64,000 bases of DNA, from sequence record PZ171032.1, one strand, 5' to 3'. Every line of letters begins with the position of its first letter. The stretch's first letter is position 1. The notes under the pieces are model-generated. The model searched no databases and was not told the origin of the DNA. It saw only the letters and a program-made list of their open reading frames with translations. The position numbers and the translations under genes were made by a program. Below are positions 5,628 through 46,845 of this stretch, one piece after another. The DNA comes from a phage.

Positions 5628-7610
5628 TTATTTGATGTTATTCTTTGTATCGATCAGTTCACGGTATTCAATCATAGCAGGAGTGTCCCAATATTTCAAG
5701 CCCACATGCTTCAAAAGTGGATATTTCTTTTCCAATCTTGCAATATAGGCCTTTCCGCACTTAACCCGGTTGGCGATTAAGATTTTGGCACGATGATTTA
5801 GCTCACTGTGCTTCCACGCGGTGTTACCTTCCCACTTGTGGAAATGTGGCCGATAATTTCCAAAATCCTGCATGGGGATAATTTTCCCTAATTGTCTATA
5901 CAGGCTGTCATATGAAGTTTCATTTGCTGCGCGAGTCAGTAAGAATTTCCAGGCGTCCTCTTTCAACAAATGTTCCACATTTTTCTCTGTAACATACTGG
6001 CAATCAGGATCAGTCCAAAGCAGACGGGATTCTGATACCAGGTACAGGTCTTCCCCTTCAGGAATCTGGAGTGCCGCACGCACACGGTCATAATTTTGCT
6101 GGTAGATGTTACTCAGCTGTCCCAGCCAACAACTTCCACGTTGGATATCGCCCTCATAAGGAATGCAGTGCTTAATCTTCTTGAACTCTGCCTTAGTAAT
6201 ACGTTCACGACGGAAGTAACCATCCTTCTCAAGCTTTTTAACCCAATAACCTGGCTCGTAATGAGTTTTTGTTTCACCTTTCTTCGCAGGTCGGCGAGGG
6301 AGCTCTGATAACAATTTGACCGTATCTGCAAAGAACGGGTGGTGTGCCGCTTCTTTAAACTCTTCCACCAAATCCGTGTTACGGCAATAGAAAACGTTGC
6401 GTCCGGTGATCTCGCTTAAGTAGTTACACTTATTTCGGTTATATTTGCCGTCTCCGTCGTTAAACACTAAGTAGACCCCTCGTAAGAACTCCGACTTTCC
6501 GTAGCAGGCGTAACCTATGCGGCCTTTATTTAAGCCGCCAGCGAAGATCTCACAATCTCCCAAACTTCCTAGTCCTGTCTCTTCCCATCGGTCCCACATA
6601 AAATTCTTACCGAAGATGTGCCCGAACACTCCACTGTTCTTCATCATCTCACGTGCTTCTGAGGATGTTTTTGCTGTCTCCAATTCCGCAACAACTTCTG
6701 CCCCACGAAGACGGATACCCTCTTTGACAAAAGCCTCCAACCGCTCTTGGAATCCACCATCGTCGTGCCCCTCTATGGTCCATTCGCGCCCAGGGTTAAT
6801 ATTGCAATCCCCAATAGGGATCTCTACACAGATTGCAGGGTAGTCTGTCAATGTTTCCAGAAACTTAGAGCGGTAAGGTTGGTGTCCCATCACCACACGG
6901 CTCTCATCAGAGCTGGTATAACCTTTCAGGATAGTCATTTTCCAACCATCTTTCTCGTAGCGATACTGCGCCTCAACCTTGTCACCTTCCAGCATCTTAC
7001 TGGTCATAGGGTCGGTAACGGTAAACGGAAACTTTGCATAGCGTAGGCATGACGCAATAGCAGTGCGATATTTCAGAATATGCTCTTTCTTAACATGGAA
7101 CTGAACTTTTACCCCGTTGTGCTCTTCAGTCTTTCGCTCGCGGATCTTGGTAACGTTTGGGATACCCTGATCCAAGAACAATAGATATGTGCTTTCAACA
7201 CCATTGTGTACACTGATCACATCGAAAGTGTCCACCATGCTGAACGGGGCCTTTGAACCAACACCTTTATTACCCACCAGAGCGTTGCTGTTGCGCTTGG
7301 TTGACTCTCCGAGGTTCATGAAAGTGTTGCGGACCATCTCTTCTGACATGCCTAATCCAACGTCCTGCACAAAGAAGTATGGTTCAAGGTCTGTAGGAGA
7401 GTGAATGATGATCGGTACATCGCCCCGTCCAGACTCAACATGAGAGTCCACAGCATTGAAGATTGGTTCACGGCAGCTTGCCAGCACCTTATCTTCGTAA
7501 ATCCCTTTAATGATTAGCCCAAAAGTCTCTTTGTTCAGAGAAATTGAGCCCCTGGTGACCTCCATATTTCCAGTTAGCACTGCTTTAGTTTCATTACTGT
7601 TTACAATCAT
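5628..7610 (-). CDS. GHKL-superfamily ATPase, Hsp90-like N-terminal domain, with a large uncharacterised C-terminal region
   Basis: N-box 'EPIFNAVDS', G1 box 'QDVGLGMS', Hsp90-like 'NLGESTKRNS' and G2 box 'GNKGVGSKAPF' within the first ~130 aa; the remaining ~500 aa match nothing I recognise. Confidence 0.6.
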   Translation of the reverse strand: MIVNSNETKAVLTGNMEVTRGSISLNKETFGLIIKGIYEDKVLASCREPIFNAVDSHVESGRGDVPIIIHSPTDLEPYFFVQDVGLGMSEEMVRNTFMNLGESTKRNSNALVGNKGVGSKAPFSMVDTFDVISVHNGVESTYLLFLDQGIPNVTKIRERKTEEHNGVKVQFHVKKEHILKYRTAIASCLRYAKFPFTVTDPMTSKMLEGDKVEAQYRYEKDGWKMTILKGYTSSDESRVVMGHQPYRSKFLETLTDYPAICVEIPIGDCNINPGREWTIEGHDDGGFQERLEAFVKEGIRLRGAEVVAELETAKTSSEAREMMKNSGVFGHIFGKNFMWDRWEETGLGSLGDCEIFAGGLNKGRIGYACYGKSEFLRGVYLVFNDGDGKYNRNKCNYLSEITGRNVFYCRNTDLVEEFKEAAHHPFFADTVKLLSELPRRPAKKGETKTHYEPGYWVKKLEKDGYFRRERITKAEFKKIKHCIPYEGDIQRGSCWLGQLSNIYQQNYDRVRAALQIPEGEDLYLVSESRLLWTDPDCQYVTEKNVEHLLKEDAWKFLLTRAANETSYDSLYRQLGKIIPMQDFGNYRPHFHKWEGNTAWKHSELNHRAKILIANRVKCGKAYIARLEKKYPLLKHVGLKYWDTPAMIEYRELIDTKNNIK

Positions 7611-8107
7611 TTATTGCGCTCCTTGTAGTAGATATGACTCCCGAATTGAGCTGTCCTCTGCATCTTTTTTGCCCATTTCGGTCGTACTTTGGTCGTATGG
7701 TAGTGTGTTGCTCCACCTGTTATATCCATAGCCATGTATGCAACATGGTTGTTATTATAGACCTTTAGAAGCATCTTTGCAAGACTTTTAGCGTGATCCC
7801 ATGAATCTTTTTCTGTCACCTTAAAAGTTTTGCCGTAGTTTGTCCACGAAAACTGATTAGGTTGGTAGACAATCTTTCTTATAGTGTCCGGGTATTTGGG
7901 ATGAGATTTCCTGTTTAGGGTGGCAAACCCAGATGCCAGCATACCCATCGTGCCATCCCCTCTAGCTTCCCTGTAGATATTGCATGCTAGAATGTTTTCC
8001 TTAGTATCTGATGGCTTGCAAGTATGGTATACTTTTTGTTTTGGTGCTGCAACAACAGGCAGCGATAAAAATGCGCTCAAAATAATAGCAAAGATCTTAA
8101 TTTTCAC
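7607..8107 (-). CDS. secreted cell-wall hydrolase, SleB-type (Hydrolase_2 family); candidate endolysin
   Basis: N-terminal signal peptide 'MKIKIFAIILSAFLSLPVVAAP'; 'NIYREARGD...LNRKSHPKYPDTIRKIVYQPNQFSW' matches the SleB consensus (IYxEARGE...LNR...P.FP.TI..V..Q..QF). Confidence 0.7.
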   Translation of the reverse strand: MKIKIFAIILSAFLSLPVVAAPKQKVYHTCKPSDTKENILACNIYREARGDGTMGMLASGFATLNRKSHPKYPDTIRKIVYQPNQFSWTNYGKTFKVTEKDSWDHAKSLAKMLLKVYNNNHVAYMAMDITGGATHYHTTKVRPKWAKKMQRTAQFGSHIYYKERNK

Positions 8108-34481: not shown

Positions 34482-34514
34482 GTCACTCCTCCGGTATGAA
34501 AATCTCTACAAGGT

Positions 34515-34543
34515 ATTTTACCAAATTTTGTAACAATAGTCAA
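34515..34543 (-). promoter_or_regulatory. sigma70-like promoter with extended -10
   Basis: On the minus strand: -35 TTGACT (reverse complement of 34538-34543), 17-bp spacer, TGG-TAAAAT (reverse complement of 34515-34523). Confidence 0.55.
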
Positions 34544-34561
34544 TCTGAGCATAAAAATAAA

Positions 34562-34577
34562 CCCCGCCGAAGCGGGG
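34562..34577 (-). terminator. rho-independent terminator
   Basis: ccccgc-cgaa-gcgggg hairpin followed on the minus strand by TTTATTTTTAT. Confidence 0.65.
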
Positions 34578-34586
34578 CTTTAAAGG

Positions 34587-37500
34587 TTAGTCGTGAGACT
34601 CGTTCCAAGGTCCCTGGAAGCTTGAGTTAGAACGGCTTACTACAACAGTAGGACAGGATATTGCGACCCCTGTTACAGAAGACGTTGACCATGGTGTGTA
34701 GATTTCAACAACAATATCTATGGTTTGTTCACCAAGACCTGTTATCCCTACCGCACACATGCCGTTGTTGTCGTTTCCGTACTTCTTACCTGCAAGGATT
34801 TGATGTCCGGCTATCCAAACGTTGAGCTGGGAGCTGGCAAGAGTACCATTCAGTTTAAAGAAGAATGTTACGTTCTTACCCTGACCTGAAACGTTATCTA
34901 CGTATCTCCACCTCCAACGGCAAACCCTTTGCTGGGAGTTATATACTGGAGCACAATCCCCATAAGTCCTGTGTGCAACAATTGCACCTTCGAACTGGTT
35001 AGCGCGGATAACAGAAGCTTCTACACGACCACGGAAGGTACCTCCGGTTGCGTCTATGGTGCCTCTAAAGCTACCATTATTGGCATAAACATCCCCACGG
35101 AAGGTACCACTAGTGGCGTTAACTGCCCCTGTGAAGTTACCAGAACTGGCGTTGATGTTGCCTTTCACCCACACATCCATAAATTGGGCGTGCCCGTTCT
35201 TGTTAATATACCAACCGTATTTATGGTACCCGTTGCCATCGTAGTTGTTTGACGAAATTTCTTGTGCGATCTTGGCAGAGGAGATCGTGCCATTCTCTAT
35301 AAAAGCGTCTTTCAAGAATGCTTGGTTGTTCTTGATTGCGAAAGCAAGGGTTGCTGTTCCATTGCCTGGGTTGTATACCGCAAAATTGTTTGCACTAACC
35401 ATGAAGTAGGATTGAACTTGGCCCCCAGACCCTTCCATCCCCAACTGGATACCTGCAACATATTTATTCCCTGCGGAGTCTACCTGTATTTTTGTGCCCC
35501 ACTGAGCATTTACTTTACCCTCTAAGTCGGTTACAGCCTTAGATGTTGTAGCTACTGCAGCCCTGATCTCGGACACATCCCCAACACCATCAATGATCTC
35601 CTGCTTAGCAACGGCAAGTTCTTGACGAATAGCTGACGCTGTGCCGTTAATCAGATCAACAGTGGCGTTATTAGTTTCAGAAATATTCGCAGACAAGTCT
35701 TTCTTCGTCTGAGTCAGCTTATTGTCCAACCCAGTAATATTATTGGTGTTGGTTGTAATCTGCCCTTTAGCAGTGGTTAACTGCTCAGTCAAAGCTGCCG
35801 TTTTCTGATTCAACAGGTCAGTTGTGGCCTTGTTGGTGGTAGAAATCAACGTATTAAGATCAGACTTGGCGGTGTTTATCTTACCATCAAGCGTGGTGTA
35901 GTTTTTGGACACTGTGGCGTTGGTCTGGCTAATCTTCTGGTCAAGAGTCTCAGAAGTTCTGTTCAGCAAGTCCACAGTGGCCTGGTTAGTGCTCAGAATG
36001 CTCGCATCCAACTCAGATCTTTGAGTATTCAACTTGCCCTCTAGGCTCTTATCACCAGCCAGATAGCCTTTTTCAACATCTCCGATCTGCTCAGTCAACT
36101 CGCCCTGTGCAGCAACCAGTTTTTCATCCAACGCCTCTGTTTTCTTATTAAGAAGATCAGTGGTGGATTTGTTGGTTGACTCAATCAAGGATGATAGTTT
36201 AGCACTCTCATTCTGCAGGTTGTTGGTCAACTCACCTTTCGTTGCTGTCAGCTTGCTGTCTAAAGCCTCGGTTTTCCGATTAAGGAGATCTGTAGTCGTT
36301 TTATTGGTTGATACAATCAGAGAGTTCAGCTCAGAGCTTTCCTGTGCTAAAGCATCTTCCAATTCACCCCTTGTTGAAACAATCTTCTCGTCCAAAGCTT
36401 CAGTTTTCTGATTTAACAGATCGGTTGTAGCTTTGTTAGTGGTCTGGATTAGAGAAGTCAACTTGCCACTTTCTTTAGAAAGATCATTTGCAAACTTATT
36501 CTGAGTGGCTACCAGTTTCTGGTCTAGAGTGGTAAGCGTTCCATTAACGTCCTGGAAGTTGTCGTGGGTTTCTTGGATGAATATTCCAACCCTATCCCCC
36601 AACTGAGCATACAGCTTGTCTACTCTAGAGAACTCACCTTCCATGTGGTCAAAAGCCTCGTCAACTCTACCATCCATGTACCTGTTAAGTTCTGTGACAC
36701 GATTTTCAACCTCTTCAATAGAGGAATCCAAAGTGCTCATCAACTCTTTATAAGTTTCTGTCTTTTTGAATTCAGCATCTATCTGAGGCATCAAATCCTC
36801 GATAGAGGTGTAGCAGCGTGCAGCGCATTCTACAAACTGAGAGCTACCAAAAGCGTTTGTGGTTCTAATATACCAATAATAAACCTTATCGTTCTGCAGG
36901 CCTTCAGATGTCCAAGTTGAACCAACACCCATACGGGTGGCGTTTGAAGTAACGGTTGCATCACTGGTGTCGGGCAACCTTGTCATACCAGATGTCCAAA
37001 AGTCATACTGGGTGCTTACACTTGCTAAATCCCTGCTGTGTGGAATCAAGGTGATAGCAAAGTATCCCTGCTTAACCTCTACAGAAACAGGAGCTTCAGG
37101 TGCCTGAATGTTAAACTCGCAGTACGCTTCTGGAGATACACCACCTTTATAAGATGTTGCAACCACGGTTGCTGTGTATGATCCTTTGGTCAAGCCTTCT
37201 ACTCGGACAAACTGCTCAACTGTCTGTGCTGTCCAAACAATCTCTCCGTTCTTTCTTACCTGTACAATATTTTGAGCGTAAGTTCCAACGTTGTCCCAAG
37301 CCAAAACACCGTGAGTTACTTCTCCGGCTTGGAGAACGGAATATCTGAAGTTTTGCGGTTGAGCTACACCAGATGGAGATATCGGAATATCTACATTGCC
37401 AGAATCCGGAAGTTGCCCTGTGGCATCATTCCACTCTTTAGCATCTTGACGAAGTTTTACCTTGACACCACCCTTTTTGGTAAACTCCCATTCAAGAACC

Positions 37501-38732
37501 CTCATTTCTTGGCCCACTATACCAATACTTGGAAGGTTCATTGTAACGTAACGACCAGGTTTAAATTTAAAACCTCGCATATTGCAGGTGACTTCAATAA
37601 TCCTGCCAGCTCTAGCGCGTCTTAAGAAGATTGCAGAAACACGCTGAGCTTGATAAGGACTGGTAACAAAGCGATAGTCTATATCGATTATCTTTCTTTC
37701 TCCATCCTTCTCTATCCACTCTGGGACAAACACTGATGGAAAATCTGTTTCAGAATACCCTTTGGTCGGACTAGTGAATCTGCCAGTTATTGTGTTGGAT
37801 CTTTTGTCAAATGAGGCTTCCGGATAGATCTTGACCTCACCACAGACACAATCCTCACTCAGCGTCATTGTTGCCGGGCCATAGTATGCACCAACCAGCA
37901 AACCATACTTACCAGCTACATAGCTGAGATCTGCGCCACAAGCTTTCAGCATTTCTGCCATAATGCTTGCCGGAGCCTCGTCCATGTCAAACTCGCCATT
38001 AATGGTGTATCGGCGCTCACTGGTTCCGTCTGCGTTTTTTACCGCCTCGTCGCATATGTTAGCAGCCTCCTTGAAGGACTCCCAGTTGATGGTTTCGTCA
38101 GGACATTTAAGGTACGTTCTTAAATAGTCTAGAATCACCAAGGACGCGTTATTGGTATACACCTCTTTACTGATGCGAGGATCATAGCATTTTTTACCAA
38201 CCTTGACGAGTGTAACGTTTGGCAACCCAAAAGGAAACTTGTTAGGGTCGAACTTGAAGCTGGCACGTAGCCAACTGATCCCTCTACCTATCATGTCTGG
38301 TGACCACGATGGGCAGTGTGTCCCCATGAAAGGATCAGCCGTTTTTCTGTCGTTATGTAACTCCCACGATACCAAATCTCCATACGAGGAAATAGGATTA
38401 CCATCGACAAGTATATCTTCTATACCTTCCAGAGGGTGATTGGCAAGAACAATAGCACAATGGAGGGTTTTGTCTCTATCCTGCTCCAAAAACGCAAGCA
38501 ATCCAGATGTGCGTGTCTTTCCATACACTACAGAGCAAGGTGCAGCAGAAGATCTGAGAAGCTTTTGTCTATCTTGCTGACTTCTGTAAGATTTGTTGCC
38601 CTCAAAAATCTTATCCAGAGTTCTGGTGGTAACAGTGTTCAGGCTGTCAGCCAGAGCTGCCTTGGATGCGTTCCAGTCATAACTTGAAGATCTTGCAGAA
38701 GCAACGATGTTATCAATCATTGCAATTGGCAT
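34587..38732 (-). CDS. large tail fiber protein (1381 aa) with central coiled-coil repeat shaft
   Basis: Central ~300 aa of ~44-aa tandem repeats ('LIxSTNKxTTDLLNxKTEALDxKL...GEL'); C-terminal Gly/Asn/Thr-rich region; large structural ORF in the fiber cluster. Confidence 0.7.
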   Translation of the reverse strand: MPIAMIDNIVASARSSSYDWNASKAALADSLNTVTTRTLDKIFEGNKSYRSQQDRQKLLRSSAAPCSVVYGKTRTSGLLAFLEQDRDKTLHCAIVLANHPLEGIEDILVDGNPISSYGDLVSWELHNDRKTADPFMGTHCPSWSPDMIGRGISWLRASFKFDPNKFPFGLPNVTLVKVGKKCYDPRISKEVYTNNASLVILDYLRTYLKCPDETINWESFKEAANICDEAVKNADGTSERRYTINGEFDMDEAPASIMAEMLKACGADLSYVAGKYGLLVGAYYGPATMTLSEDCVCGEVKIYPEASFDKRSNTITGRFTSPTKGYSETDFPSVFVPEWIEKDGERKIIDIDYRFVTSPYQAQRVSAIFLRRARAGRIIEVTCNMRGFKFKPGRYVTMNLPSIGIVGQEMRVLEWEFTKKGGVKVKLRQDAKEWNDATGQLPDSGNVDIPISPSGVAQPQNFRYSVLQAGEVTHGVLAWDNVGTYAQNIVQVRKNGEIVWTAQTVEQFVRVEGLTKGSYTATVVATSYKGGVSPEAYCEFNIQAPEAPVSVEVKQGYFAITLIPHSRDLASVSTQYDFWTSGMTRLPDTSDATVTSNATRMGVGSTWTSEGLQNDKVYYWYIRTTNAFGSSQFVECAARCYTSIEDLMPQIDAEFKKTETYKELMSTLDSSIEEVENRVTELNRYMDGRVDEAFDHMEGEFSRVDKLYAQLGDRVGIFIQETHDNFQDVNGTLTTLDQKLVATQNKFANDLSKESGKLTSLIQTTNKATTDLLNQKTEALDEKIVSTRGELEDALAQESSELNSLIVSTNKTTTDLLNRKTEALDSKLTATKGELTNNLQNESAKLSSLIESTNKSTTDLLNKKTEALDEKLVAAQGELTEQIGDVEKGYLAGDKSLEGKLNTQRSELDASILSTNQATVDLLNRTSETLDQKISQTNATVSKNYTTLDGKINTAKSDLNTLISTTNKATTDLLNQKTAALTEQLTTAKGQITTNTNNITGLDNKLTQTKKDLSANISETNNATVDLINGTASAIRQELAVAKQEIIDGVGDVSEIRAAVATTSKAVTDLEGKVNAQWGTKIQVDSAGNKYVAGIQLGMEGSGGQVQSYFMVSANNFAVYNPGNGTATLAFAIKNNQAFLKDAFIENGTISSAKIAQEISSNNYDGNGYHKYGWYINKNGHAQFMDVWVKGNINASSGNFTGAVNATSGTFRGDVYANNGSFRGTIDATGGTFRGRVEASVIRANQFEGAIVAHRTYGDCAPVYNSQQRVCRWRWRYVDNVSGQGKNVTFFFKLNGTLASSQLNVWIAGHQILAGKKYGNDNNGMCAVGITGLGEQTIDIVVEIYTPWSTSSVTGVAISCPTVVVSRSNSSFQGPWNESHD
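35590..36490. repeat. imperfect tandem repeats (~132-nt period) encoding the coiled-coil shaft
   Basis: About six degenerate copies of the motif gttttctgatt-aacagatc-gttgt-gc-ttgttgg visible in the nucleotide sequence; boundaries approximate. Confidence 0.6.
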
Positions 38733-39169
38733 TAATACCTCCAGACATCAACAACGATAGAATCTTTCATATCGAACATAAAGACCCCTTTATCACCTTT
38801 CGCCCAAATCTGGTTGTTCCAGAACACACCAGCGGTGAGCCCGTTCAGACCCTCGAAGATAACAATATCGCCACGCTGAACCTGTTTAGGAGTATCTAGT
38901 CGAGTCATAAAGAGATCAAAAATAGTAGGCAGGTGTGTGGTTTTGAAACGGAGCATGCACCATCTTTTGCTTTCCAACTCTGTTTTATACGTTCCTTCGA
39001 AGTTAGAAAGAAAATCTGTTCCGTATTGGGCATCAACACACTTAGCTGCAAAGGTGCAGCAATCGTGGAATCCCCATTCAAAAGGTATGGTGGCCTCTTC
39101 GTCAAACACTTTCCACAATCTTTCTTGCCAATCCACTAAACGAGGGTGTGTGCTCATTAAACCTCCCAA
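38732..39169 (-). CDS. hypothetical tail-associated protein
   Basis: 145 aa; 'WGFHDCCTFAAK' looks superficially like a Cys-peptidase motif but no matching catalytic His was found; stop overlaps the fiber start. Confidence 0.45.
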   Translation of the reverse strand: MGGLMSTHPRLVDWQERLWKVFDEEATIPFEWGFHDCCTFAAKCVDAQYGTDFLSNFEGTYKTELESKRWCMLRFKTTHLPTIFDLFMTRLDTPKQVQRGDIVIFEGLNGLTAGVFWNNQIWAKGDKGVFMFDMKDSIVVDVWRY

Positions 39170-39723
39170 ATGATCGGGCGGCTCGCCACCTGATCCACAT
39201 ATTTAAAAAATCTGTCATTATCGTTTCTTGAGCTGTGGCTTTCCTCCGTGTACCGATAAGGAAAACCTCTTAACCAGCTGTTGAAGATGGAAGAGATGGA
39301 TATGGACAAAGCACTATTCTCACCTGTCTGAATAGCCATATCTGTTATAAGTCCGTCAAACAAGCCATTAGTTGTAACAGGTAGACCATTCTCCATAGCG
39401 GTAATGTACAACGTGGCACGACAACCAGAATACTCCGTCTTCAGCAGATCACCCACATACTTAGGATCAAACCCGTTTAATGTTGCTACCACAGATCCGA
39501 AGTTGGTGGCATCTTTCTCAGACACAGCAGTTAATGTTGCTGATCCCCCTATCCCTATAAAATGTTGCCCCTCAATTACTACAACACCAGTGCCTGAGCA
39601 CACTCTGACAGTTCCTGTCGGTAGCTCCAGCTTTGCAGCAATTAAGATCTCAACACCATCAAGCTCCAGCTTTTCAAGAAATAAATTATCTAATGGCGCT
39701 CTGATCATCTTAGAAATCCTCAA
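39157..39723 (-). CDS. hypothetical tail-associated protein
   Basis: 188-aa ORF co-transcribed with the fiber genes. Confidence 0.5.
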   Translation of the reverse strand: MRISKMIRAPLDNLFLEKLELDGVEILIAAKLELPTGTVRVCSGTGVVVIEGQHFIGIGGSATLTAVSEKDATNFGSVVATLNGFDPKYVGDLLKTEYSGCRATLYITAMENGLPVTTNGLFDGLITDMAIQTGENSALSISISSIFNSWLRGFPYRYTEESHSSRNDNDRFFKYVDQVASRPIIWEV

Positions 39724-40300
39724 AGAAGTTGATAACTATATTATCACCTTTTTGCATAGCATCGACTTTTTGCTTAATTTTATAAATATCTCTGATATGA
39801 AACCTACCCTTCGGGGATTGAGTTATTATCTTCATAGTGTCCCCTGCGGCAATAGGTTTTCTAAGTCTTGGAGATATGCTTATAACAGCAGACCCAACAC
39901 CATCGCTACGCACTGGAGCTGTTACCACTTTCAATTCATCATTGACAGATATTTTATCCCCAGCTCTGGCTATGTCTCTGTTTGGCTCCCACCCAACCGT
40001 CTTCAAAAAATCGTCGTTACCAGTAGGCCCAAGGGCGATTGGCTCATTAGCTGTTACCGAGTGACCGTAAGTTTTAATAAGAAAGATGTTCCCATCTTTA
40101 TACACCTGATCAACAAAGCTCTTAAGCTCTAGCAACTGTGACTCGCTGATATTGGAAACCGTCAAAGTGCCTTTCCAGTTGGGTGTGGCATAGGTTACTT
40201 TTTGCGTTTTACCTGTAAACGGACTTTTAAACGTAACAATATCTGCCAGCAGCTCCAATCTAATATCTGGAAGGTATCTAGGCCTTTCCCATAAAAACAT
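39710..40300 (-). CDS. hypothetical tail-associated protein
   Basis: 196-aa ORF, first gene after the 40373 terminator and promoter. Confidence 0.5.
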   Translation of the reverse strand: MFLWERPRYLPDIRLELLADIVTFKSPFTGKTQKVTYATPNWKGTLTVSNISESQLLELKSFVDQVYKDGNIFLIKTYGHSVTANEPIALGPTGNDDFLKTVGWEPNRDIARAGDKISVNDELKVVTAPVRSDGVGSAVISISPRLRKPIAAGDTMKIITQSPKGRFHIRDIYKIKQKVDAMQKGDNIVINFFEDF

Positions 40301-40331
40301 TGTGCCTCCAGGTTAAACAATCATGATAATT

Positions 40332-40360
40332 ATTTTACCAGATTTTGAGTTAATACGCAA
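40332..40360 (-). promoter_or_regulatory. sigma70-like promoter with extended -10
   Basis: On the minus strand: -35 TTGCGT, 17-bp spacer, TGG-TAAAAT (reverse complement of 40332-40340). Confidence 0.4.
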
Positions 40361-40372
40361 TACAAACAAAAA

Positions 40373-40392
40373 GCCCCCGCCGAAGCGAGGGC
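40373..40392 (-). terminator. rho-independent terminator
   Basis: gcccccgc-cgaa-gcgagggc hairpin (one mismatch) followed on the minus strand by TTTTTGTTTG. Confidence 0.5.
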
Positions 40393-40399
40393 AAAACAG

Positions 40400-43300
40400 T
40401 TACTTCAGTTTCTCTTGCAACCCAGCAACAACCTCTGTCAATTTTTTAACCTGCTCCTCAAGGGCAGTTATTTTATCGTCCTGTTCCCTGCAAACCTGGA
40501 CAAGCAAGCCTGTTACAGCTGCGTAATCCACGCTGTAGAATCTTTCCTCTGTTATTAAAGGAGTTCCATCCTGATCAGGGTTTGGGATTTCCTTGCTTTG
40601 CACGAAAGAGCTAACTGCTTCCGGCAGCGCTTCAAGCACTTCTTGTGCTATAACACCTGCATAAGGCATACCATTCTCTTTTAAAGTGTAGGTATAGCCC
40701 TTCATCTTCCTGATAGCTTCTAACGCGTTAGGAATAACCTCTATGTTATCCTTCAGGTCGCGGTCAGAGTTTTGGTTCACAGATACACAGTTCACTGCAC
40801 CGTTTACAGAAAGGTATCTTGATTTATCTGGCAAGGTACCACAATGCCATACCCAATTTGATTGAGAATCGTCAAGAACCTTAAACTCCAACACGTTTGG
40901 ACGATTTCCTGTACTGCCGTTGCCCCAATAGTGCATATGAGCGCTATTCGCAGGCATGTTGCCACCGTTATTAGTAACATGGCTTCCAGAAATATATACC
41001 TTTAACTCTGAGGTCGGTATTTCCCCTTCGGGAGTTGTTCCTCCATATCTGAAGCTAACACCATTGCCACCTGTTTGGGTCCACGGGCCCCAAGTGAAGG
41101 TTTGTCTCACCATATTACCATAACGTATAAATCTATCGCCGTGATAGGTAATATACTCTTGAACACACCCATTACCGTTATTGGCGTTATTCTGCAACAC
41201 AATAAGTGTTCCAGCTTCATTTACCGGATAATGACGATCATATGTTGCATCATTATTTGCCGATTGATGGTAAATGCCTTCCCACAACCCATTATAGGTG
41301 TCAAGGTCTGAGGTACCGAGACCCTGACCCCTGTGCTGCATAGCTTTATTCCAGGGGTGGTGATTACCGCCTTCTATAGACCTGGTGTATAAGTTACTTT
41401 GTCTGCCAGCAATCTGGAAAGCGTAGTTTCCCGAGAATCCTACAGATAAACCTCCTACAACCATGGTGTCTTGTGGACCGTTAACATTACCAGCCATTAT
41501 TTTTGACGGGTTATTAGGCCCGAACTGGTTGTTCCAGTCTCCACCAGTATGACATACAAAACCACCTGGGGCTGAAAAAGTACCATCCTTATTGAAGTTG
41601 TAGAATCTATGAGCTGTGCCCACAACATCTCGAACAATAACTTGACCAGCCTCTGGAGTAGACCTGAACTCTGCTTGACCTTTAAGGCCAGCACCATTAC
41701 CGCATTTAGAGGTAAACGTGCCGTTAGTTAGATCCTCTGTTCCATCTGATGCACACTGGAATCCTGCGTTAGAGAATAGCGCCTTTCTAGGACCACTGTA
41801 GCACAAATAGTCAAAACCGTCAGCCCATAGCTCTACTTTAGGCATGTTCATTTTGCTCATTATCGCATAGCGTTCAGCAGTGCCTATATAGTGCCACTGT
41901 GTGCCGCCGCCAGTGTAGAACCCTGAAGTCCCTTTGAAGTCAACAATAGGTCTAGTGTTGGTATTGTTATCTCCAAGAACAGCCAGATTTAAATCTGCTG
42001 ACTGGAGAGGTGCAACGAACTTAACACCGTCCTGATTGTTTGTTACAGAGCCGACTTGATAATCTTGCTCTCTGGTAAACACTTCGACAACATTTCTACT
42101 TGCGTATATGCTGACAGGGAAAGCACGAGCCTCTGCATAGAAAGCAACATACTCTTGTTTACCCCTTGTTGGAGCAACCATCCCAAGAAGTGCTTTTTCA
42201 TTTTGATAGAAATTCACTACCCCGTAGAAAGAGTCCCCTCTATCTGTCCAACCACCAGTTCTATAGTGACACTGTAAGGTGGCGCAGTTCATAGGGTCAC
42301 CGCCGGATGACGATCTGGTGACTAGGGTAATATCAGTGCCAGTTGCTGGAGCATAATACGGATCTGTTCTAACGATGATTGGGTAGTATTTCCCATCTTC
42401 CATCCCTGCAGTTCTTGGCAGTGTTAAGAAATCTTTGACACCCGCAGCTATAGGAACTTTGAACAGATTCTGAGCATCTGCCAGGGTTGTAGCCCCTGTA
42501 CCACCTGCTGCATGAGGTAAAGGTTCCCACTTAGCCTTCCGGTTGTTATAAACACCCCACTCCAGACTTCCGTTACCGGATTCGTCCATCCCACCATCCC
42601 AGATAACCATCTTGGCGGCTTTCTTGGACCCCCAGAAGCCTCTTTCTGCTCCTGAACTACGGATCCACTCTCCAAGTCCCCAGTTTGTCAGCTGACCAGT
42701 AAGATCCCCAACCTGCATGTATTTAGGGCAGTCTAATACACCGTCTTCGCGGAAACCTAGATATCTATGAGTTTCAGATCCTTTTGCACCTTTGTGCAGG
42801 TGGATTGTCAACCAAGCTTTATTGTCGTTTCTTACCTCAGAGTAGATCCTATATCCATGCTCAAGGACACCGTCAGCGCTATATTTGTCCCCGTTAACAA
42901 TACCGGATGCTGACTTAACATCAGCAGAACTTTGAGACAGGTAAAGGTGCCCGAAGGTAGGGGAGTTTCTAGACCCGAGACCGATGTGCGATCTAAAGGT
43001 ATCATCGTTACGAGGTCTGACCATCGGCTGCCATGAAGTCCACTGGTTTGTGTTGGCCTGATAGGTTCTCAAATACCAAACATCTACGTTAGAGAATGGA
43101 TAGTATTCCTGACGACAGCCTGTACCGCCGTTAGCATTGTTCTGCCAAACAATCAAGTGACCAGCACCAGAACCTGCAGGGTAACCATTTGCCTCGGTTG
43201 CATAAGCAGTCATCGGCTGATAGTATACACCATCCTGATTACCAGTCAAGTTATTGATATTGAAATTTGGCTCAAGGGCTGCACGTTGCTTATAGAAAGC

Positions 43301-44212
43301 CCCTAAGTTAATGCGTGCACCTGCGGCATCTCTGGCCCCAGTACCGCCTTGCTCTATAGCAAGAGGTTGCCACGAAGCTGTTTGTTGGTTCCACATGCCC
43401 CAACGGCCTGTTGCATCAAGCTGCAAGTACCCTGCTGTGTTTAAATCATCTCCAGCACGGATAACTGTTCTTGTTGGGTTGTTTGCCTCTAGGCGTTTAA
43501 ATTCATCACGAAGTGCTATTCTTTTTGTTGTTGCTACACCGTTGGTTACTGCAATGGTATACATGGCTCCGGTGGTAGCGCCACGGAAAATACCATCAAC
43601 AGTTGTAGTATCACGACGAGATACCACACCATTCAGAAATTTTTCACCAGCTGCTACAGAAGGGTAGTTGGTAGTTCTTCCCTCTTCAATAACTGCAGGA
43701 CCAACAAAGTTATCAAGGTGAATAACATCACCTACAGTGTGCACTGTACCAAAATCTACACGCTGTGCAAGTGCTTTAGCATCGTTAGCTGTCTGAACAG
43801 TAACATCCATTACATCCTGGACAGACTGCCCTTCGGCTGTCATAATCATAGATGCACCAATGGTAGATTCCAGCTCCTCCCTTAGGGACGGGTCAGTATA
43901 TACCATCCATGCAGCGTCAGTAATCCCACCATCTGAGTACGGTGAAGACAATGCAGGAACAGTGTGTGGAAATTCGCCTTTCCAACGCAGGTAGAGGTCT
44001 TCCTCTTCGAAGTAGGCAAAATCCATTGGGCCGTTTAACTTACCACCTTCCTTAAAGGAGATTACATGAGAAACAGTCCCATCAACATGGACAACATCGC
44101 CAATTTTTACACGACGGGTCAGGTCTGGTTGTTGAACAACCAGGTAATCATCCTCTGTCACTGCGGTAGTGGCAGGAAGAGATTCAATTCTGACAACTTT
44201 AATATCAGCCAT
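40400..44212 (-). CDS. tail fiber/tailspike (1270 aa) with C-terminal intramolecular chaperone domain (peptidase S74-type)
   Basis: C-terminal 'NQNSDRDLKDNIEVIPNALEAIRKMKGYTYTLKENG...AGVIAQEVLEALPEAV' matches the autoproteolytic chaperone signature (SDxRxK ... GxIAQEVxxxLPEAV); N-terminal ~100 aa homologous to the 46847..47515 product. Confidence 0.85.
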   Translation of the reverse strand: MADIKVVRIESLPATTAVTEDDYLVVQQPDLTRRVKIGDVVHVDGTVSHVISFKEGGKLNGPMDFAYFEEEDLYLRWKGEFPHTVPALSSPYSDGGITDAAWMVYTDPSLREELESTIGASMIMTAEGQSVQDVMDVTVQTANDAKALAQRVDFGTVHTVGDVIHLDNFVGPAVIEEGRTTNYPSVAAGEKFLNGVVSRRDTTTVDGIFRGATTGAMYTIAVTNGVATTKRIALRDEFKRLEANNPTRTVIRAGDDLNTAGYLQLDATGRWGMWNQQTASWQPLAIEQGGTGARDAAGARINLGAFYKQRAALEPNFNINNLTGNQDGVYYQPMTAYATEANGYPAGSGAGHLIVWQNNANGGTGCRQEYYPFSNVDVWYLRTYQANTNQWTSWQPMVRPRNDDTFRSHIGLGSRNSPTFGHLYLSQSSADVKSASGIVNGDKYSADGVLEHGYRIYSEVRNDNKAWLTIHLHKGAKGSETHRYLGFREDGVLDCPKYMQVGDLTGQLTNWGLGEWIRSSGAERGFWGSKKAAKMVIWDGGMDESGNGSLEWGVYNNRKAKWEPLPHAAGGTGATTLADAQNLFKVPIAAGVKDFLTLPRTAGMEDGKYYPIIVRTDPYYAPATGTDITLVTRSSSGGDPMNCATLQCHYRTGGWTDRGDSFYGVVNFYQNEKALLGMVAPTRGKQEYVAFYAEARAFPVSIYASRNVVEVFTREQDYQVGSVTNNQDGVKFVAPLQSADLNLAVLGDNNTNTRPIVDFKGTSGFYTGGGTQWHYIGTAERYAIMSKMNMPKVELWADGFDYLCYSGPRKALFSNAGFQCASDGTEDLTNGTFTSKCGNGAGLKGQAEFRSTPEAGQVIVRDVVGTAHRFYNFNKDGTFSAPGGFVCHTGGDWNNQFGPNNPSKIMAGNVNGPQDTMVVGGLSVGFSGNYAFQIAGRQSNLYTRSIEGGNHHPWNKAMQHRGQGLGTSDLDTYNGLWEGIYHQSANNDATYDRHYPVNEAGTLIVLQNNANNGNGCVQEYITYHGDRFIRYGNMVRQTFTWGPWTQTGGNGVSFRYGGTTPEGEIPTSELKVYISGSHVTNNGGNMPANSAHMHYWGNGSTGNRPNVLEFKVLDDSQSNWVWHCGTLPDKSRYLSVNGAVNCVSVNQNSDRDLKDNIEVIPNALEAIRKMKGYTYTLKENGMPYAGVIAQEVLEALPEAVSSFVQSKEIPNPDQDGTPLITEERFYSVDYAAVTGLLVQVCREQDDKITALEEQVKKLTEVVAGLQEKLK

Positions 44213-44226
44213 TCTTTCTCCTGAAA

Positions 44227-44243
44227 GGGGGCAAACAGCCCCC
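44227..44243 (-). terminator. intercistronic hairpin (attenuator/terminator-like)
   Basis: gggggc-aaaca-gccccc hairpin immediately after the upstream stop codon; followed on the minus strand by TTTCAGGAGAAAGAATG (Shine-Dalgarno and start of next gene). Confidence 0.4.
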
Positions 44244-44247
44244 TATG

Positions 44248-46845
44248 TTAAAGGTACAATCCACGGTATTGAGCATAGAGGCCCAGACCGCGAAGGATTT
44301 CGCCAGAGTGATAGCCTACCGGATCAGAAACTGCCCAGCAGCCGTTTAAAACATTATCCCCATTAATGAAGTGGTGCTTTTGCAGTAGCTTCACACAGGC
44401 TTCTACAACAATGTCTATTTGAGGTATTGTCTCTGAATACCCGCACAGACCTAGCCAGCAGCAACCTGCAAGCCATTCACCTACCACCCACATCCTGTCT
44501 CCTCTGTCTTGATAAGAATATCCCCCAGAGGTGTTAAAGTCTGTAGGCAGATTTCCTGAATGAGATGACTGGAATCTGTTGAGGAACCATGCCCATTTCT
44601 GGCAGAACAGGAATAGTCTTTCATCAACAGGTTCTTTATGTTTCTTGAGCTCATATATTGTGCGGCACGCAGCAACAAAAGATCTTGACTGGAGCTTAGA
44701 GTTATCTACCATCTCCCACCAACCAGCCAACCCTTCATTACCTCTTTGCCATACATAACGTGAGGCAACTGGACCCTCTGTCTTAAATGTATTGTTATAC
44801 CAGACTTGAGCGTCATACAGAAAGCCTATTGTATTTGACAATCTATGGCGATCTATGTTTTCTGCACCCATGCAGTAGACTGCTGGGTATTGCATGCCAG
44901 GATAGGGCCAATTTGGCCTTTCCTCTAAAAGATAGTTTTCCTTATCTATTACCTTTCCGGCAGGGAACACACCTGGTGTGTGCCTGTATGCACCTTGCTT
45001 GTAGTTTCTGACATAGCAATCGCCAACCTTAGCGGTTGATTCTGTCTTGCTTGCCATCCACACGCTAAACCAGATTAGATAAGCATCTCTATCTGCAATA
45101 TAGAATTGCGGCAGCGTGTTGACGCAATACAGATCAAACAAGCCATTACCTATCTGCCTGTCGCTTAGGCTGAAATCTACAGAGGTGAGCCCCTTAGGAT
45201 TAGCAAAGAAAGGTTTAATCTCTTCTTCGGTGTGATGAGGTTGTGTCGGATCTAGTTTGAAATCTCCTAGAGTAAGAGTTTCTGTTATCCATTGTCCATT
45301 AGTGGCATATAGATCAGCATACCATAACCACCTGTCTTTGTCAAGAAATTTGACCCTTACCATCTCATCATCTGATCGATAAGTTACTGAGTTTAAAGAA
45401 ATCTCTCTCCCAAAATTGAAAGTTACTTTACCTCTTGCTATATTACAACGGGTGAAGTTGTCAGAGTGGTTGTAAATGTCTGTATCATACTGCATACTAA
45501 CACTAGCGCCACCGCTTACGGCAATGTTTTCCTCTTTAGGTAAGAGATACGGATTACCGTCTTTACCAACTACCTCTACGAAATCAGTAACCTTGGCAAC
45601 TATTTCTGTTACCTCTGCCCCTCCAAAAGGAACCCCTATCCTGTACTGTTTTTTGTTATTGTTGCCATCATTAAGGATGAAATGTGGCTGGAACAGAACC
45701 CCTTCTCCTCCGAAATTCATAACAATTTCAGCATCTCTGCCTATTTTGTATGTAGTCCCTTTTTGAATTATTTCGCAAGGCTGGCGTGCGTTCATTCTAA
45801 AATTGATATACCCGTCACTGTCCCTGCTCATGACAGGAACTGTTCCTGCAACAAGACAAGCACCATCTGTAAACGGTGCCTTAACCAACGTGGTCTTTCT
45901 AAACAGTTTGTCGTAGGCGTTTATGTCACTGAAATTAAGCAACTTGTTGTAAGACTGTTTAAACGCGGTGTAATACTTTTCCTCACCTGTCAAGGTGTAG
46001 AGTTGATAACAAGCGTCACACCACATTTCTTCCCCGTCCAACTCTGGGGCCTGATTATCTGCAACCACGTTTATAGGATTTACAATTACAGGGGATCCTG
46101 CAGGTATCACCGATCCACCCTGCTCTTGAGGTAATCTCACACAATAGGTTACCTTGTGGCTGCCTGTAACACCCTTATCTTGTAATTGGATTGTGCCGAA
46201 CTCTACAGACGTATGACCACTATCGGCTATGCTACCGTTAGCCCAATAGCGGTTACCATCCCATGCTATATACCACTCAACCCACCAACTTAATCCGGAT
46301 GTTGTCCAATCCGGGTTAGCATCTGTGCCGCCGTAAACATCAGAGTCTACAGTGTTTCTTCCTAACACACCGTTATACGCTTGGAATGCCTTGTCCAGGT
46401 ATTCCCCCCATGTCGGAGATCCAGCTGGGATTTTTCCTCTACCATTGGTAAAAGACACCACCACATCTTTAAACCCACCATGTGATGGAACCCCATCTGT
46501 GGATAGAGGGTAGTGGGACAATCTTTGCATTTTACTTTCTACTGCATATGCACCCAGAAGATGGCTATTGTAAGCTTCCCAAGCATCTTTTGCCCTATCC
46601 AAGTAGAAATCGCTTTTCGATGCCCTGTATGCTTCAATGTACCCCAGAATCAACACAGCTTGGGACTCATGCATTGCCCAATCATTATTTATCTTATTAC
46701 CTGACCACCCTGCAGCTATAAGACCATCAGGGTTTACTAGCTTATTTTGTGTAGGGGTGTTGGTAATACCTGTGTTGTTATCGAGGCACTTCCTGTGCCC
46801 CTCAATCATCTGAAATACGTTATCAATGTTGTGTTGAATACGCAT
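44248..46845 (-). CDS. tailspike-like protein with probable enzymatic (glycosidase/depolymerase-like) domain
   Basis: 865 aa, Trp/Tyr-rich ('SWWVEWYIAWDGNRYW', 'VGEWLAGCCWLG'); lacks its own N-terminal anchor; its start (ATG at 46843-46845) abuts the upstream adapter stop codon (46847-46849). Confidence 0.55.
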   Translation of the reverse strand: MRIQHNIDNVFQMIEGHRKCLDNNTGITNTPTQNKLVNPDGLIAAGWSGNKINNDWAMHESQAVLILGYIEAYRASKSDFYLDRAKDAWEAYNSHLLGAYAVESKMQRLSHYPLSTDGVPSHGGFKDVVVSFTNGRGKIPAGSPTWGEYLDKAFQAYNGVLGRNTVDSDVYGGTDANPDWTTSGLSWWVEWYIAWDGNRYWANGSIADSGHTSVEFGTIQLQDKGVTGSHKVTYCVRLPQEQGGSVIPAGSPVIVNPINVVADNQAPELDGEEMWCDACYQLYTLTGEEKYYTAFKQSYNKLLNFSDINAYDKLFRKTTLVKAPFTDGACLVAGTVPVMSRDSDGYINFRMNARQPCEIIQKGTTYKIGRDAEIVMNFGGEGVLFQPHFILNDGNNNKKQYRIGVPFGGAEVTEIVAKVTDFVEVVGKDGNPYLLPKEENIAVSGGASVSMQYDTDIYNHSDNFTRCNIARGKVTFNFGREISLNSVTYRSDDEMVRVKFLDKDRWLWYADLYATNGQWITETLTLGDFKLDPTQPHHTEEEIKPFFANPKGLTSVDFSLSDRQIGNGLFDLYCVNTLPQFYIADRDAYLIWFSVWMASKTESTAKVGDCYVRNYKQGAYRHTPGVFPAGKVIDKENYLLEERPNWPYPGMQYPAVYCMGAENIDRHRLSNTIGFLYDAQVWYNNTFKTEGPVASRYVWQRGNEGLAGWWEMVDNSKLQSRSFVAACRTIYELKKHKEPVDERLFLFCQKWAWFLNRFQSSHSGNLPTDFNTSGGYSYQDRGDRMWVVGEWLAGCCWLGLCGYSETIPQIDIVVEACVKLLQKHHFINGDNVLNGCWAVSDPVGYHSGEILRGLGLYAQYRGLYL

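Follow-up and report, generated by a model that had tools for sequence, protein, structure and literature searches.

A peptidase S74-type chaperone domain, predicted to cleave itself off, at the C-terminus of a Vequintavirus-type lateral tail fibre

The lateral tail fibre gene and its neighbourhood

The DNA analysed here is a stretch of 64,000 nucleotides from a phage (sequence record PZ171032.1), called the window in the following. Its minus strand contains an open reading frame (ORF) of 1270 amino acids (aa), which had already been described in an initial annotation and whose C-terminus reads VNQNSDRDLKDNIEVIPNALEAIRKMKGYTYTLKENGMPYAGVIAQEVLEALPEAV, as quoted there. This gene and a hairpin close to its end are located as follows.

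40400..44212, minus strand: gene for the lateral tail fibre (1270 aa), including the stop codon; ortholog of rV5 gp41 (rv5_gp041) and RudolfGeigy bas52_0026
40373..40392, minus strand: intrinsic-terminator-like hairpin of 8 pairs, 7 of them G-C, followed by TTTTTGTTTG; begins 8 nt past the fibre stop codon

Over its whole length the gene is 96.5 % identical at the DNA level to bas52_0026 of Escherichia phage RudolfGeigy (Vequintavirus; MZ501102), which is annotated as 'lateral tail fiber protein', and about 80 records of Vequintaviruses (rV5-like phages) cover it to 100 % with 93–96.5 % DNA identity. Eighteen records labelled 'Campylobacter phage' are about 95 % identical to Vequintaviruses of E. 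coli; these records are without annotation, and we do not count them as an argument against E. coli as the host. The protein matches the family phrog_6578 ('tail fiber protein') over the full length with 1729 bits. Its counterpart rV5 gp41 (YP_002003543) comprises 1272 aa and shares 95 % protein identity in the C-terminal 136 aa. The fibre gene is flanked by a gp42-type fibre protein of 865 aa on one side and a gp40-type protein of 196 aa on the other, the same arrangement as in rV5, and the flanking genes match rV5 gp42 and gp40 to gp37 of the tail-fibre gene cluster. Judged by full-length orthology and conserved neighbourhood, the ORF is a Vequintavirus gp41-type lateral tail fibre. A terminator is annotated in phage HdK5 under the region matching the hairpin. 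Terminator-like sites in this region do not exceed the shuffled expectation, so that its position is the sole argument for the hairpin at 40373..40392.

The C-terminal S74 domain

The extreme C-terminus of the fibre (residues 1149–1270 of 1270) is occupied by a domain of the peptidase S74 family.

40403..40768, minus strand: C-terminal intramolecular chaperone domain, residues 1149–1270 (122 aa, 13.6 kDa); self-cleavage would release it

Read on the minus strand from 40780, the sequence begins with V-N-Q-N-S-D-R-D-L-K-D-N-I and later contains GYTYTLKENG and GVIAQEVLEALPEAV, identical to the wording of the initial annotation; the interval 40403–40780 proposed there encodes residues 1145–1270. 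A profile search, suggested as a check of the domain assignment, gave a clear result. The Pfam family PF13884 (Peptidase_S74, 'Chaperone of endosialidase') matches residues 1149–1200 of the full protein with 54 bits and E = 2e-14, the curated gathering cut-off being 22 bits. With the C-terminal fragment of 126 aa alone the score is 58.3 bits, and positions 1–57 of the 58 profile positions are covered. The last 126 aa are also matched by 30 PHROG tail-fibre families, and similar C-termini were found in 1373 phage records (tblastn). No second S74-type domain was detected within the window by phmmer against all 186 ORFs of at least 80 aa.

Searches of the PDB with the sequence alone led to the chaperone-bearing fragment of S16 gp37 (6F45; E = 1.4e-5), in which the S-D-R-x-x-K motif is aligned, and to the intramolecular chaperone (ICA) domain of MyRF (7DC3). 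A profile built from 12 sequences additionally recovered 3GUD, 7Y5S, 8JOV, 6EU4 and 9VVR. The presence of the domain and its membership in the profile family are thereby directly supported, and profile and model matches confirm the original observation that the fibre C-terminus belongs to the peptidase S74 or endosialidase-type chaperone family.

Predicted fold of the chaperone

An AlphaFold2 model of residues 1136–1270, built with the closer homologs described below, reached a mean pLDDT of 81. It starts with two short helices and a small hairpin; a further helix, a long beta-hairpin (residues 1200–1228) and a C-terminal helix of 40 residues follow.

40529..40615, minus strand: predicted long beta-hairpin, residues 1200–1228 (DSSP on the model); counterpart of the T5/K1F 'tentacle', shorter
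40406..40525, minus strand: C-terminal helix of 40 residues, residues 1230–1269 (pLDDT 88–96); predicted trimeric coiled coil nucleating assembly

The chaperones of T5 and K1F are described as an alpha/beta body with hairpins called 'tentacles' and a coiled coil at the centre (PMC4690869), and the modelled order of elements matches this description. The hairpin, however, lacks about 45 residues relative to K1F and T5 in the alignment with distant sequences (see below). In a Foldseek search against the PDB the best seven matches (probability 1.00, E = 2e-4 to 2e-3) were all 3GW6 (K1F), 7DC3 (MyRF ICA) or 4UW8 (T5 pb1 with its chaperone), whereas the eighth had E = 0.23. The predicted fold is in this respect that of the family, although the TM-scores are modest (0.37–0.54); values of this size are to be expected for a single modelled chain superposed on crystal structures of intertwined trimers.

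The Ser/Lys dyad

The catalytic dyad of the S74 family consists of a serine and a lysine, for which the fibre offers the following candidates.

40766..40768, minus strand: Ser1149 (codon TCT), putative nucleophile, with which the released chaperone would begin; in register with Ser911 of K1F and Ser1264 of T5
40751..40753, minus strand: Lys1154 (codon AAG), predicted general base (Ser + 5); aligned with K1F Lys916 and T5 Lys1269

The TCT codon lies exactly where the cleavage serine had been placed and encodes residue 1149, the serine of the S-D-R-D-L-K motif. Two alignments bear on its conservation. The first, distant one combines the last 175 residues of the fibre with rV5 gp41, the K1F endosialidase gp17, T5 pb1 and a further eight distant fibre sequences of phages, retrieved by tblastn; the hosts of these phages include Synechococcus, Vibrio, Klebsiella, Proteus, a bacterium of the Roseobacter group, Salmonella and E. 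coli. Five columns are invariant in it, Ser1149 and Lys1154 among them. The second contains 52 closer homologs from a collection of 5.8 billion proteins, all of them with PF13884, and here Gln1147, Ser1149, Asp1150, Lys1154 and Ile1157 are invariant. A conserved Ser/Lys dyad, whose absence had been named as an argument against the assignment, is thus found in 12 of 12 distant and 52 of 52 closer sequences.

Counting along the translated reference genes, the dyad falls on Ser911/Lys916 of K1F and Ser1264/Lys1269 of T5, so that its register with characterised proteins is likewise a direct observation. The K1F numbering, obtained from the translation of NC_007456 gp17, is presumably that of Schulz et al. 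2010. Wild-type T5 pb1 undergoes cleavage, and the exchange S1264A abolishes auto-proteolysis, whereas the role of Lys1269, activation of the serine hydroxyl, is a structure-based proposal (PMC4690869). Serine and lysine were reported to be absolutely conserved across ICA domains and to form the catalytic dyad of endosialidases (PMC3742443).

One component of the active site has no clear equivalent. For T5 it was proposed that Arg1250 of an adjacent chain completes the oxyanion hole, and does so only once the trimer has folded (PMC4690869). The residue nearest to this position, Arg1132, is present in only 8 of the 52 closer homologs, and a clear equivalent of the oxyanion arginine is not recognisable. 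Among the same homologs Arg1104 is conserved in 46 of 50, but it lies 45 residues upstream of Ser1149 rather than 14; Glu1109 (50 of 50) is also located further upstream than expected.

The lack of an assignable arginine would suit a domain that aids trimerisation and then stays in place, uncleaved, as the distal end of the fibre. A precedent is the C-terminal 'fin' of the P22 tailspike, which was proposed to be an uncleaved auto-chaperone (PMC4690869). We regard this as unlikely. A dyad as strictly conserved as Ser1149 and Lys1154, accompanied by the equally invariant Gln1147, Asp1150 and Ile1157, is to be expected only where selection acts on catalysis, and the behaviour of T5 pb1 and its S1264A variant also speaks for cleavage.

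N-terminus, shaft and distal tip

Outside the chaperone four further regions of the fibre can be delimited.

43904..44077, minus strand: Tail_spike_N domain, residues 46–103 (Pfam PF18668, 41 bits; cut-off 25); probably the end that serves for attachment or as adaptor
43094..43234, minus strand: knob-like motif, copy 1, residues 327–373; includes GHLIVWQNNANGGTGCRQEYYPF
41144..41281, minus strand: knob-like motif, copy 2, residues 978–1023; internal repeat of copy 1
40769..41071, minus strand: residues 1048–1148, the distal tip of the mature fibre, which is allele-specific; ends at Asn1148, the predicted new C-terminus

The N-terminus resembles those of the tail spikes or fibres 9OCC, 9LNA, 9D84, 4QNL and 5W6H in sequence searches of the PDB. 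The two knob-like segments share 49 % identity (E = 2e-10) when they are compared directly with each other; a self-BLAST of the whole fibre returned the identity match only, and Tandem Repeats Finder reported nothing over 34500–44300. For the shaft, a beta-helix or triple-beta-helix had been suggested. However, no beta-helix family was matched by profile search: a Pfam scan of residues 138–940 at E-values up to 5 gave nothing, so that neither an enzymatic nor a 'beta-helix' shaft is backed by a beta-helix, lyase or hydrolase family, and an NCBIfam scan of the full 1270-aa protein gave nothing either. By analogy with related fibres, a trimeric fibre with an interdigitated C-terminal tip would be a defensible version of the suggestion.

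A larger monomer model of 330 aa (residues 941–1270) is of low confidence (pLDDT 68, pTM 0.37); it places beta-strands upstream of Ser1149, at pLDDT 40–77. The fold search with this model gave no match at E ≤ 0.001, and its first Foldseek matches, the R-pyocin fibres 6CL5 and 6CT8, are weak (probability 1.0 but TM about 0.2). Within the tip, the column counts of the closer homologs show W1096, G1097, R1104, E1109, G1138 and Q1147 to be conserved within the subfamily.

Proposed folding and self-cleavage

From these data it is very probable that Ser1149–Lys1270 is an endosialidase-type S74 intramolecular chaperone, which would template the trimeric tip and then cleave itself off. By analogy with the characterised members of the family we infer trimerisation, the chaperone role, cleavage and the exact scissile bond. 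Three nascent chains would join via the C-terminal helix (1230–1269), which would form a coiled coil. In each chaperone the small alpha/beta body, together with the beta-hairpin, would then keep the neighbouring distal tip (approximately residues 1048–1148) in place and serve as its template, and an interdigitated trimeric fibre would fold starting at its C-terminal end. The active site would be complete only once the tip has trimerised correctly; Lys1154 would then activate the hydroxyl group of Ser1149 for an attack on the Asn1148-Ser1149 peptide bond. As a result, a chaperone of 122 residues (13.6 kDa) would be released, and a kinetically stable fibre of 1148 residues (125 kDa) would remain, whose new C-terminus would be the receptor-facing tip.

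Cleavage as such is established for the K1F endosialidase and for gp37 of the S16/T2 type. For T5 it was inferred from missing density that Ser1264 is removed along with the chaperone (PMC4690869). Provided that the serine is part of the released piece, as in T5 pb1 and K1F, this piece is predicted to have 122 residues and the mature fibre 1148. The earlier estimate of a mature fibre shorter by about 121 residues was therefore right to within one residue, 122 being the more likely number. In the accessible literature we found no direct demonstration of, and no mass or N-terminal data on, cleavage of rV5 gp41.

The released trimer of 122-residue chains might have a second role, as a decoy, as a regulator of the assembly order or as a cap that covers the receptor-binding tip until release. 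Its acidic character (pI 4.6) and its long coiled coil are features that fit such a role without supporting it directly, and 'transient chaperone caps' on fibre tips have reportedly been discussed for phages of Alteromonas. Folding and catalysis, however, explain all conserved positions, and we know of no post-cleavage role for any phage S74 domain, so that a second role appears very improbable. A chance or compositional match caused by the coiled coil, with the region being merely a helical tail, can practically be dismissed: the last 40 residues do form a generic heptad-like helix, but the Pfam match (1149–1200) sits upstream of it and exceeds the cut-off by 32 bits, and independent structural and profile matches as well as the alignment of the dyad reach the same family. 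A chaperone that templates the tip and is then released by its own activity thus continues to be the preferred reading.

Alternative tips in related phages

About 40 Vequintavirus records match the fibre gene only to about nucleotide 2807. The fibre of JeffSchatz is an example: it is 92 % identical through residue 1047, where homology ends, and continues with about 430 unrelated residues that lack S74 and have only a sub-threshold Laminin_G_3/ConA-like match. It is followed by an extra ORF of 110 aa (phrog_1361), which has no counterpart in the window. Since homology stops at residue 1047 and the tip beyond it is unrelated, the exchangeable unit would be the tip together with its chaperone.

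As a tentative and rather doubtful extension of this, Vequintaviruses may alternate between two tip cassettes on an otherwise identical shaft, perhaps exchanging a chaperone in cis for one in trans. As read from the sequence, the cis cassette found here would correspond to residues 1048–1270, a tip of about 100 aa with a built-in, self-cleaving chaperone. The cassette of the JeffSchatz/LL12 type would provide a tip that might be lectin-like and comprises about 430 aa, and the 110-aa ORF (phrog_1361) could be a candidate for a separately encoded, trans-acting fibre chaperone.

Relation to published work

The S74 family has been characterised structurally and mechanistically since 2007–2010. For rV5, gp41 was found in the virion proteome by Kropinski et al. 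2013, and its C-terminal domain gave an HHpred match to 3GW6 (probability 98.7) together with a predicted coiled coil (PMC3606486). The LL12 paper of 2020 assigned pfam13884 to residues 1151–1200 of rV5 gp41, while LL12 gp41 is without pfam13884 (PMC7229145), and according to the RBPseg atlas of 2025 a self-cleaving S74 domain closes several fibre classes, those of the Vequintavirinae included (PMC12143355). As the domain was already described in rV5 gp41 (2013, 2020) and in fibres of the Vequintavirinae (2025), the finding is correct but already known. Its value is practical rather than conceptual, and no new biology is added. The mature fibre likely ends at Asn1148, probably the receptor-facing tip; tags or fusions at the C-terminus of the fibre protein would be cut off; and residues 1048–1270 would be the module to move together when the host range of rV5-like therapeutic phages is engineered.

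Comparison with known systems

The closest counterparts are rV5 gp41 and its Vequintavirus orthologs such as RudolfGeigy bas52_0026, which represent the same gene at the same position of the locus with a published 3GW6-like or pfam13884 C-terminus. Apart from its length of 1272 aa, rV5 gp41 differs by point changes only (NQNS here, NQSS in rV5).

Among solved structures, the distal long tail fibre gp37 of Salmonella phage S16 (6F45) is the closest relative in sequence; the S-D-R-x-x-K motif is identical, and its hairpin is about as short. However, it is part of a long tail fibre of the T4-like type, which also requires the adhesin gp38, and comes from another phage family. The ICA domain of MYRF/MrfA (7DC3), membrane-bound transcription factors of eukaryotes, has the same fold, the same dyad and the top TM-score (about 0.53), but what its cleavage frees from the ER membrane is a transcription factor, and no fibre is involved.

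The chaperone of the K1F endosialidase (endoNF; 3GW6) is the founding member of peptidase family S74. It has the dyad in register (Ser911/Lys916) and the same order of elements, and it gave the best Foldseek match. In contrast, sequence identity is only about 13–16 %, an insertion of about 45 residues in K1F leads to longer tentacles, and its passenger is a sialidase tailspike, whereas the passenger here is a non-enzymatic-looking fibre of 1148 aa, in which residues 138–940 contain no Pfam domain.

The best functional analogue is probably the L-shaped tail fibre pb1 of T5 (1396 aa; 4UW8 with and 4UW7 without chaperone). Identity in the aligned region is 13 %, the T5 'bullet' tip domain is undetectable in the present fibre and Arg1250 is without a clear counterpart. 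Nevertheless, pb1 too is a long lateral fibre, comparable in size, that carries a chaperone of 133 residues at its C-terminus, and its Ser1264/Lys1269 align with Ser1149/Lys1154.

Conserved residues and repeats of the fibre

Upstream of the predicted self-cleavage site (Asn1148-Ser1149) of the 1270-aa lateral tail fibre, Arg1104 is kept in 46 of 50 sequences of the fibre's subfamily and Glu1109 in all 50 (window 40886-40903, minus strand), and the pair W1096-G1097 is likewise conserved, whereas Arg1132, at the T5-like arginine position, is not conserved in this subfamily. Judged by this pattern of sequence conservation, the folding sensor, an arginine of the neighbouring chain (Arg1250 in T5) proposed to complete the oxyanion hole in the folded trimer, may therefore lie elsewhere than in T5 and K1F.

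A knob-like motif (…LIV(W/L)QNNANxGxGCxQEY…) also occurs twice in the fibre; the two copies are 49% identical to each other (E = 2e-10) and are each preceded by a GGTGA motif (residues 289 and 570):

43094-43234, minus strand, knob-like motif
41144-41281, minus strand, knob-like motif

The name 'pyocin knob domain-containing S74 family peptidase' is attached to some E. coli homologs, and the low-confidence 330-aa model (residues 941-1270) weakly resembles the R-pyocin fibres 6CL5/6CT8.

Among the matches to the fibre gene are 18 GenBank records (MG0656xx; including H8-H14, H22-H23 and H27) without annotation, labelled 'Campylobacter phage' with the host Campylobacter jejuni. Their identity to the fibre gene of this E. 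coli Vequintavirus is about 95%. The host label looks doubtful.

Genomic surroundings

40373-40392, minus strand, G+C-rich hairpin followed by a T-run
44248-46845, minus strand, gp42-type protein (865 aa)
34587-38732, minus strand, gpJ-like central fibre protein (1381 aa)

The hairpin starts 8 nt past the fibre stop codon, inside the 99-nt gap to the gp40-type gene, and is plausibly an intrinsic terminator within the tail-fibre gene cluster. In phage HdK5, the annotation places a terminator beneath the corresponding match. The gp42-type protein, encoded upstream of the fibre, strongly matches phrog_2871 ('tail protein') and gave no Pfam match; the annotation of BASEL phages calls it a lateral tail fibre and gives it glycosidase domains.

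The gpJ-like protein comprises only 1279 aa in rV5 and RudolfGeigy. The additional residues are probably located in the coiled-coil region, where the translation contains reiterated '…SLIxxTNKxTTDLLNxKTEALDxKL…' segments. Since VB-EcoM-WM, BP9 and ECML-10 possess the same long allele (97% identity), the difference represents ordinary allelic variation.

Alternative tips at the gp41 locus

Alternative alleles exist at the gp41 locus (window 40403-41071, minus strand, versus 6140-7772 of the JeffSchatz locus, MZ501082). JeffSchatz-type fibres share the sequence through residue 1047 (92% identity) but continue with about 430 unrelated aa lacking the S74 chaperone domain. Downstream follows an additional 110-aa ORF (phrog_1361, annotated as unknown function), which has no counterpart in the window and may be a trans-acting chaperone in place of the built-in one.
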